From a virus (taxonomy: Duplodnaviria > Heunggongvirae > Uroviricota > Caudoviricetes): a stretch of DNA of 28,446 nucleotides. The notes under the pieces were generated by a model. The model was not told the origin of the DNA. It was given only the letters and a program-made list of their open reading frames with translations, and made no database searches. Below, piece after piece: positions 25,932-26,951 of the stretch; the stretch's first letter is position 1, and every line of letters begins with the position of its first letter. The stretch lies in IMG/VR virus record IMGVR_UViG_2622736468_000007, one strand, 5' to 3'. The position numbers and the translations under genes are program-made.

Positions 25932-26951
25932 ATGACTTCTGAAAGCAACAGAATTGGGAAGATGGGTGTAAACTACATAGAAGGTGTATTGACAAGATGG
26001 GGATGGGGATATCAATCAATTTCGCAAGAAAATGATGATGGGTTTGATGGCTTAATATATATAAGATCTAAACGATTTGAGGCGAAAGATAAAGAAAACC
26101 GGAGTAAACAATCTTGGGAGTTCACTGGTGGGTTGATTCATGTACAAGTAAAAAGTGGAGATACATACATTAGTAGTCGTAATAAAGATGAAATAAGGAT
26201 CAAAATAAAAAACCTCAATGAAAAGAAGAAAATATGGTCTAGATCGTCTATTCCATGCATACTTGTATTTGTTTTTTGGGATCATAATGAAGTTGAGTAT
26301 TCCTACTGGGCTGATCTTAAATCTGAATTAACTTATTGTGATAACAGTAGTACGCTAATAAAAATCCCCTTAAAAAATAGATTTATGAGATCCCAAGAGT
26401 GTAAGGGGCCTTTAAGACGACTTGCAAGGGTATCGGCCAACTATGCAGATAAGCCGCTGATAGATTTATCAAAATTTGACTCATTAAGTGGTAAGCTACC
26501 TACAAGTCTAAACAGTAACCTAAATTGTTCTTTGAAAAAGAAAGGTATTGAATTCTATCAGAAATGGCGATTAATTGGGGCTACAAACCCTTATTTTGGT
26601 CCTGTTCTAATAAACAGAACTGGTTGGAGTCATATAACTCGACGAAATCGCCCAATAGCAAGAATTGAAGCAAGCTTTAATTTGTTACCTTTAGCAGCAA
26701 GAATTATAAATGATGTATCTACATGGCGAATGTTAACACCCGTACGACGGTATGATAATAGAAAGGATGGTTATGTTTGCTTTATAGATTTCGTTGGGTT
26801 AACAGCCAAAGTGAATTTAAAGAATCGCAACTCATCAGAAGTTATGGTTGTGTTAAAAAGGGAGAGGAGGTATAAACAGGGTGAAGACTGTTCCTCTGCG
26901 AAAACAAGATTATGGTTTTACACTGTTTATGAACCTGGAAGAGGAAAATAA
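25932..26951 (+). CDS. AT-rich 339-aa ORF with N-terminal PD-(D/E)xK-like (DUF4365-like) nuclease-fold motifs; candidate defence protein
   Basis: RBS GAGGG; motif spacing G-x2-G...E...GW...DDGFDG...HVQVKSG...PCILVFV...YWADL; many AGA/AGG/ATA codons. Confidence 0.55.
   Translation: MTSESNRIGKMGVNYIEGVLTRWGWGYQSISQENDDGFDGLIYIRSKRFEAKDKENRSKQSWEFTGGLIHVQVKSGDTYISSRNKDEIRIKIKNLNEKKKIWSRSSIPCILVFVFWDHNEVEYSYWADLKSELTYCDNSSTLIKIPLKNRFMRSQECKGPLRRLARVSANYADKPLIDLSKFDSLSGKLPTSLNSNLNCSLKKKGIEFYQKWRLIGATNPYFGPVLINRTGWSHITRRNRPIARIEASFNLLPLAARIINDVSTWRMLTPVRRYDNRKDGYVCFIDFVGLTAKVNLKNRNSSEVMVVLKRERRYKQGEDCSSAKTRLWFYTVYEPGRGK

Follow-up and report, generated by a model that had tools for sequence, protein, structure and literature searches.

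The subject of this analysis is an open reading frame (ORF) of 339 amino acids (aa), located at positions 25932..26951 (+ strand, ATG start) of a 28,446-nucleotide stretch of viral DNA (Caudoviricetes; IMG/VR virus record IMGVR_UViG_2622736468_000007), this whole stretch being referred to here as the window. The ORF encodes an N-terminal DUF4365 nuclease, a linker and a conserved C-terminal domain, and is considered, with somewhat more belief than doubt, to be a horizontally acquired accessory gene of a prophage acting as a single-protein defence against phages (or against mobile elements). As a candidate for an anti-phage nuclease system made up of one gene, it is sound and well supported. 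The effector is already known and the regulatory domain is uncharacterised. The system is not categorically new; the part most worth pursuing is the effector-swapping C-terminal module.

The product of the ORF is identical to RefSeq WP_021537117.1, annotated as 'DUF4365 domain-containing protein'. In the original prediction, made by inspection of the window, it was described as an AT-rich reading frame with many rare codons and a composition unlike that of its surroundings, and coordinates, length, GC content and codon counts all agree with this description. Thus, GC content is 0.354 in the ORF (0.279 at third codon positions), against 0.471 in the window and 0.45-0.46 in the flanking integrase and yfdR genes, although the foreign character of this composition must be read with the caveat that the window holds several further AT-rich islands (about 11-12.5 kb and 15.5-17.5 kb). 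AGA and AGG together account for 18 of 30 arginine codons, ATA for 14 of 25 isoleucine codons and TTA for 14 of 28 leucine codons, codons of this rare type being few in both flanking genes.

A PD-(D/E)xK/DUF4365-type fold had been proposed for the N-terminal part from the order of its motifs, and both a profile search and structure prediction bear this out. Pfam DUF4365 (PF14280) matches aa 10-153 (25959..26390, +) with E=7.3e-19 and 68.6 bits, well over the gathering cut-off of 24.3, and the nuclease core extends to about aa 165. The predicted structure is that of a PD-(D/E)xK nuclease with the homing endonuclease I-Ssp6803I as top structural match; its fold most resembles those of Hjc-type Holliday junction resolvases and of this homing endonuclease. 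The DxGxD...QxK motif is present as D35-x-G37-x-D39 and Q72-x-K74, its first part lying at 26034..26048 (+; D35-D36-G37-F38-D39) and its second at 26145..26153 (+; Q72-V73-K74). The motif has been defined for DUF4365 in PMC11297309, and both of its parts are conserved in the family: among 83 diverse members, with identity down to about 20%, D35 is conserved in 94%, D39 and Q72 in 99% each, and K74 is invariant. The DDGFDG and VQVK strings that had been singled out beforehand are therefore conserved family residues, and the active site of the predicted DREN-type nuclease is, as read from its sequence, intact. DUF4365 is the DREN domain of SPARDA, which acts as a collateral DNase/RNase (PMC10810196, PMC12205087). 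Moreover, Q72 and K74 correspond to Q66 and K68 of EAT16, a toxin associated with extracellular contractile injection systems (eCIS), in which the single mutation of three of the four DxGxD...QxK residues abolishes toxicity in E. coli (PMC11297309).

The nuclease is followed by a variable linker (aa 166-200; 26427..26531, +), with the lowest pairwise identity of all regions, and by a conserved, very basic and confidently modelled C-terminal domain (aa 201-339; 26532..26948, +), for which a role as trigger or assembly module is proposed. Initially, the C-terminal 210 aa or so had been described as unrecognisable; this stands as far as databases are concerned, while the true domain is shorter, with about 140 aa (201-339). 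The C-terminal part has no match in Pfam, NCBIfam, PHROG or PDB sequences; PDB sequences, searched with the protein itself and with the two profiles, yielded no true matches, no PDB fold matched the domain, and a search of the viral structures in BFVD returned nothing significant. The domain is, as judged from its model, structurally novel and uncharacterised. When aa 166-339 were modelled alone (30 diverse sequences), the predicted local distance difference test (pLDDT) reached 90.5 and the predicted template modelling score (pTM) 0.86, while the full-length model gave a pTM of 0.57, which suggests a flexible connection between the two predicted domains.

The isoelectric point of the C-terminal region is 10.5 in the window protein, the family median being 10.3. 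The most conserved stretch of the whole protein is aa 201-262, above the nuclease domain, while the linker and aa 263-300 are variable. This stretch contains the hallmark motif G231-W-S-H234-I-T-R237 (26622..26642, +), in which G231, W232 and H234 are invariant among the 83 diverse members and R237 is kept in 83%; R240 is conserved in 92%, and S248, L251-L252 and Y209 belong, together with F329 (98%), to a set conserved in 82-98%. A further conserved motif, Y333-E334-P-G-R337 (26928..26942, +), lies at the C-terminus, with E334 present in 88% of the members and the form '(F/L)YS(V/I)(Y/H)E' in most distant ones. Two known folds were considered for this domain and rejected. An all-helical HEPN RNase (R-x4-6-H) does not fit, R229 being unconserved in distant members and the modelled fold non-helical, and a RelE/ParE-type toxin fold (RelE/YoeB/ParE) failed the structural similarity test.

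As judged from profile searches, the family is real but uncommon: when 1.84 billion representatives were searched exhaustively with a profile of aa 166-339, 377 clusters (50% identity) were recovered, of which 188 had E<=1e-10. Full-length homologs with 55-79% identity are found in Cedecea, Yersinia, Serratia, Acinetobacter, Edwardsiella, Enterobacter, Pantoea, Citrobacter and Klebsiella, followed by others with about 40% in Pseudomonas, Methylomicrobium and Burkholderiales and with 23-33% in further clades; the E. coli and Acinetobacter proteins share 71-72% identity over their full length. Where the source names are given, these homologs are called only 'DUF4365 domain-containing' or 'hypothetical'. 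A second, distant clade also exists in E. coli, with 331 aa, about 26-27% identity and the same GWxHITR and C-terminal motifs, and was found in two complete genomes, one of them that of strain GF3-3 (L048, 9001-9996), with one more copy in NZ_OL790696.1 (L049, 9986-10981). This last PLSDB record, 4.8 Mb long and labelled as a plasmid, is apparently an E. coli chromosome, the family match there being really chromosomal.

DUF4365 is kept in 98 of 105 distant representatives, and other effector-type domains, the most telling outcome of the analysis, are found in a few relatives. N-terminal additions comprise a CHAT protease (n=3), a TIR domain (n=3) and an EAD11 adaptor (n=1), and in two further relatives SIR2 directly abuts the C-terminal domain without any nuclease. 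The TIR and CHAT relatives retain the DUF4365 segment as a partly degenerate scaffold; in at least one of them, P0225, the catalytic residues have been lost, with 'INGL...ALKI' in place of 'DDGFDG...VQVK'. The SIR2, TIR, CHAT and EAD11 relatives are P0215 (SIR2-type), P0218, P0225, P0227, P0209, P0145, P0147, P0174 and P0142. By analogy, a constant C-terminal module combined with interchangeable effectors is the signature of modular immune proteins, and SPARDA, SPARTA and SPARSA draw on the same effector set (nuclease, TIR, SIR2).

The genomic context of the gene was surveyed by all-versus-all comparison of 21 loci (BLAST of flanks), to which 98 pooled neighbours from 13 further loci were added. 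No partner gene common to different genera was found in the flanks of the 21 loci, and the gene is solitary and stand-alone. In prophages its position differs from one phage type to another. A Yersinia lambdoid prophage carries the homolog between antiterminator Q and holin, on the opposite strand; an Enterobacter P2-like prophage between gpS and gpV; Edwardsiella near int/xis and also near RecT/exonuclease VIII; and Morganella within a prophage remnant, while the second-clade gene of E. coli GF3-3 occupies the end of a Mu-like prophage, with pinE and tail-fibre genes next to it. The gene is also present on 10 IMG/VR prophage contigs. In the Yersinia prophage, a 279-aa gene convergent with the homolog (L002, 11160-11999, -) has a weak, sub-threshold HEPN_Cthe2314 match (E=7e-4), so the Q-holin moron slot may hold a second accessory gene of defence-like type.

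Outside prophages, the Acinetobacter homolog adjoins a XamI/Eco57I-type restriction-modification (R-M) pair. Two Pseudomonas species share a conserved island (L008, 3285-11204; L021, 706-7346) in which the homolog is flanked by a 1,514-aa NOV_C protein on one side and by an OLD-family (AAA_15 + TOPRIM) nuclease on the other. The pooled neighbours include two retron-type reverse transcriptases, type I R-M subunits, DO-GTPase/GAP1, MazG_C, YhcG/DUF1016, resolvases, an rve integrase and a YafQ toxin. The survey that had been proposed as a check has thus returned solitary homologs in prophage accessory slots and defence islands, and, as far as can be examined in silico, none of the findings that the original prediction named as telling against it, such as homology to a non-defence protein or a lack of mobile-element or defence context, has emerged.

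In E. coli the gene is present in 22 of 5,426 complete genomes, intact and with at least 99.8% identity, and its slot is constant in all 22, the ORF being preceded by yfdR and followed by the yjjG-adjacent integrase. The integrase family itself occurs in 700 of the 5,426 genomes (about 13%), so that 22 of the 700 prophages with that integrase carry the gene. In four inspected integrase-bearing E. coli genomes the slot was occupied by unrelated hypothetical proteins: 331 aa in UTI89 (WP_000653746.1), 515 aa in SJ7 (WP_000501170.1), 239 aa in APEC E19035 (WP_000040219.1) and two of 160 and 150 aa in RM13514. The occurrence of unrelated cargos at one integrase marks the integrase-adjacent slot as a variable cargo space, and the other cargos may be further accessory or defence genes. 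The slot spans 25200-27222 in the window, and the alternative cargos lie at L034 3924-4900, L035 3621-4616, L036 3282-4829 and L037 3996-4715.

From these data, a mechanism can be proposed for the single-protein defence. The effector would be the N-terminal DUF4365/DREN PD-(D/E)xK nuclease, while the C-terminal GWxH domain would be the constant regulatory part, either sensing an infection cue or mediating cue-dependent self-assembly. The cue would most plausibly be a nucleic acid or a phosphate-bearing ligand, since the conservation and charge of the C-terminal domain point to a generic ligand rather than to a fast-evolving phage protein. By analogy with SPARDA, assembly via the C-terminal module could juxtapose the nuclease domains, the isolated DREN being monomeric and inactive and becoming activated by tetramerisation in an I-Ssp6803I-like arrangement (PMC10810196, PMC12205087). 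The juxtaposed nucleases would then degrade DNA (possibly also RNA) non-specifically, phage replication would stop and the infected cell would probably be killed.

Several points weigh against this explanation. The defence function, the sensing role of the C-terminal domain, the oligomerisation-driven activation and the abortive infection are all parts that we infer, and the role of the C-terminal domain is drawn from architecture, no functionally characterised relative of this domain having been found by structure or by sequence. The EAD11-fused relative suggests that the DUF4365 and C-terminal unit can be a recruited effector, and the C-terminal domain may accordingly be a substrate-binding or assembly part and not the primary sensor. 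As regards context, a tblastn search of isolated phage genomes (INPHARED) gave no match, the Caballeronia homolog lies among metabolic genes, and the neighbourhood survey, run without a matched random control, gives qualitative support. Furthermore, the alternative cargos of the integrase slot in the four E. coli genomes showed no Pfam or PADLOC match and no recognisable defence domain, so that the slot as a 'defence hotspot' is not independently supported by its other cargos.

Among the rival explanations, the one that fares best, while still being unlikely, is a direct, non-abortive restriction nuclease of the type IV/Mrr-like kind, in which the basic C-terminal domain would recognise incoming DNA by some feature, for instance a modified base, an end or an unusual structure, and the N-terminal nuclease would cut this DNA specifically and spare the host. 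With respect to Mrr itself, the window protein matches DUF4365 and not Mrr_cat, 12 of the 105 distant relatives match Mrr_cat weakly, and no Mrr_N was found; moreover, the nuclease is N-terminal in the window protein, a reversed domain order as compared with Mrr.

A nuclease serving the prophage itself, whether in recombination and junction resolution, in the degradation of host DNA or in anti-defence during lytic growth, is quite improbable. The nearness of the fold to Hjc-type resolvases and a homing endonuclease is in line with such a role, as is the location of several homologs near phage recombination or early genes, e.g. RecT/exonuclease VIII in Edwardsiella. A weak similarity to LPD3 (PF18798) also ties the C-terminal domain to the 'polyvalent proteins' deployed by invaders, LPD3 being a domain of unassigned function in the large polyvalent proteins of phages and conjugative elements (Iyer et al. 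2017, PMC5512222). This similarity consists of weak partial matches in 26 of the 105 distant members, the best with E=2.8e-5, in which model positions about 4-52 of 114 align with the helix plus GWxH region, but none of them reaches the Pfam cut-off of 27 bits and the window protein itself has no match. On the other hand, a gene needed by its prophage fits poorly with a sporadic distribution (22 of 700 prophages with the same integrase), a foreign composition, a frequent location on the opposite strand with a promoter of its own, different slots in different phage types and a presence in R-M and OLD islands outside prophages. The gene was found in none of the isolated phage genomes of INPHARED, and the TIR, SIR2, CHAT and EAD11 relatives indicate effectors of immunity or conflict.

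A selfish, free-standing homing endonuclease, spreading by cutting the phage alleles that lack the gene, is very hard to credit. The top structural match is indeed the PD-(D/E)xK homing endonuclease I-Ssp6803I, and the gene is inserted intergenically between conserved phage genes (e.g. gpS/gpV and Q/holin), but proteins with 60-75% identity occur at unrelated sites and in non-phage islands, which argues against a fixed target site; residence in an intron, an intein or one target site with a cognate empty site is likewise not borne out, as close homologs lie at unrelated sites in different elements. Moreover, the C-terminal domain is common to TIR, SIR2 and CHAT proteins, and DREN nucleases lack sequence specificity. 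Finally, an acquired ORF that is decaying or functionless, or a toxin that plays no part in defence, could explain the rare codons, low GC content and sporadic distribution, but is equally far-fetched given a full length conserved from E. coli to Acinetobacter (71-72%) and Burkholderiales (about 40%), invariant catalytic and C-terminal residues, a gene that is intact in each of the 22 E. coli genomes, with identity of at least 99.8%, and, as regards a toxin, no recurrent adjacent antitoxin-like partner.

If the ORF is a single-protein defence gene, as preferred here, its closest counterpart among the described systems is Divona (Darracq, Littner et al., bioRxiv 10.1101/2024.07.02.601686). This integron cassette from Vibrio cholerae N16961 consists of one gene, probably VCA0374, and protects experimentally against phage 24; its homologs 'in E. 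coli' are reported to lie less than 20 kb from integrases. Both are single small genes which combine an N-terminal DUF4365/Mrr-like domain with a second, otherwise unknown domain. They differ in that the second domain of Divona has been called crr6-like (PF08847), on the basis of HHpred and Foldseek, and in that Divona is an integron cassette, while the gene of the window is found in a prophage. No HMMER match to PF08847 was obtained at permissive thresholds in 135 members of the window family (30 + 105), the Divona authors having used HHpred and Foldseek, and no Vibrio-named protein appeared in the homolog searches of the window family, which were not exhaustive. The Divona homologs were collected by blastp at a query coverage of at least 50%, so that a shared DUF4365 alone could suffice. 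Another 'integrase + DUF4365' island has been described in E. coli (PMC9225575); DNA searches with diverged members of the window family recovered the second rare clade in two genomes only, and gave no match to the 'integrase + DUF4365' island of ST131. The identity of the window family with the Divona family, compared by description only, is a possibility to which we give slightly less than an even chance, and the term 'undescribed', applied to the gene beforehand, may be wrong in view of Divona.

The comparison with SPARDA is based on the same effector, DUF4365 being DREN, and on the placement of the sensor or assembly part C-terminal of the nuclease via a flexible linker. There are also differences. 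Sensing in SPARDA depends on guide RNA and target DNA, a mode inapplicable to the window gene; no APAZ domain was found, the PADLOC Aga_REase-PNTD1-PNTD2 model being matched at positions 6-113 of 429 only; and no short Argonaute lies adjacent to the ORF, whose neighbours are yfdR and the integrase, with no recurrent partner in the 21 loci. Lacking APAZ and an Argonaute neighbour, the window gene is not a member of SPARDA, and the family profile had no sequence match to the SPARDA chains in the PDB. EAT16 of Photorhabdus shares the two-domain organisation and the N-terminal DUF4365 with DxGxD...QxK, but it is a secreted toxin associated with eCIS and loaded into the contractile injection system (PMC11297309), while the window locus has no eCIS genes. 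The modular immune proteins (TIR, SIR2 or DREN partners of short prokaryotic Argonautes, Avs/NLR-like proteins carrying Mrr, TIR or SIR2, and EAD-linked effectors of NTPase conflict systems) resemble the family in joining a constant module to a swappable nuclease, TIR, SIR2 or CHAT domain, and differ from it in that the module of the window protein has about 140 aa, with no NTPase, APAZ or repeats and no detectable kinship to known sensors.

The original prediction had also placed the protein outside the named defence families. PADLOC-DB v2.0.0 gave no full-length match to any named or candidate system, only partial matches of the nuclease part, in agreement with that claim. For the candidate PDC-M02 (protein A), the N-terminal 150 aa or so gave weak matches to PDC-M02A models of 165-184 aa (E=8.8e-5 to 0.04); these models are DUF4365-sized only, leaving the C-terminal domain unrepresented. 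PDC-M systems are multi-gene candidates, while the window family has no recurrent partner gene. It is conceivable, though it should be held as a tentative proposal and as rather less probable than the single-protein defence itself, that the GWxH domain is an unrecognised portable trigger or assembly module of bacterial immunity which couples one conserved cue, probably a nucleic acid or a ligand with phosphate, to no fewer than four effector chemistries (DREN nuclease, TIR, SIR2 and CHAT protease), the E. coli gene being the founding enterobacterial member of a new single-chain family distinct from Divona, SPARDA and the PADLOC systems; the chance of this seems to us well short of even.

If the proposed defence holds, a single gene of 1 kb would make up a compact defence module, found in prophages of pathogenic E. 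coli (porcine enterotoxigenic E. coli (ETEC) and strains resembling Shiga toxin-producing E. coli) and by many Proteobacteria. Its regulatory domain, new to structural databases and tied to four classes of immune effectors, would constitute a new type of sensor for effector swapping, and a small, trigger-programmable collateral nuclease might be derived from it, DREN having already been explored for diagnostics. Should the gene be a Divona homolog, the value would be smaller, and would lie in the domain dissection, the conserved residues and the natural prophage context provided for a validated, mechanistically unknown system. Furthermore, the integrase-adjacent slot, present in about 13% of E. 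coli genomes, is a store of uncharacterised cargo genes.

As regards the immediate surroundings of the ORF, a promoter-like site (TTGTTA-18-TAAAAT; 25870..25899, +), located by consensus scan about 30 bp 5' of the start codon, suggests that the gene is transcribed on its own, and a ribosome-binding site (AGAGGGA; 25920..25926, +) can be read in the sequence 5 nt before the ATG. Downstream, and convergent with the ORF, a P4-type tyrosine integrase (27223..28446, -; Pfam Arm-DNA-bind_3, Phage_int_M and Phage_integrase) marks the end of the prophage next to chromosomal yjjG. On the other side, 730 bp 5' of the ORF, lies a small Xis/AlpA-like helix-turn-helix ORF of about 64 aa (about 25006..25200, +); its HTH_17/MerR matches are sub-threshold (E about 1e-3), so that it is plausibly, with weak support, an excisionase or AlpA-like protein. 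The location of the gene between an AlpA-type regulator and a P4-type integrase, as first described, is consequently well founded for the integrase, with its three Pfam domains, and only weakly supported for the AlpA identity. The small ORF is unannotated in the inspected RefSeq record and absent at the homolog loci of other genera. The spacer between it and the nuclease gene (25200-25931) is a 730-bp unannotated, AT-rich segment with short ORFs only, e.g. a hydrophobic 59-aa ORF at 25274-25453 (-).

The window comes from E. coli, and the locus is 100% identical in porcine ETEC and O139:H1 chromosomes, where a mosaic lambdoid prophage, integrated next to yjjG, has this locus at its integrase end. 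An Rfam scan of the window gave no match near the ORF; elsewhere it revealed two full-length cspA thermoregulator elements (RF01766; 113 and 157 bits) at 11977-12407 (-) and 16200-16639 (-), whose location in other AT-rich prophage islands (GC 0.33-0.40) implies prophage-borne cold-shock-protein genes. The same scan located an IS009 RNA gene (RF02111, 221 bits) at 1336-1534 (-) and, at 6327-6443 (-), an ALIL pseudoknot (RF01497), which is the frameshift element of an IS3-family transposase.

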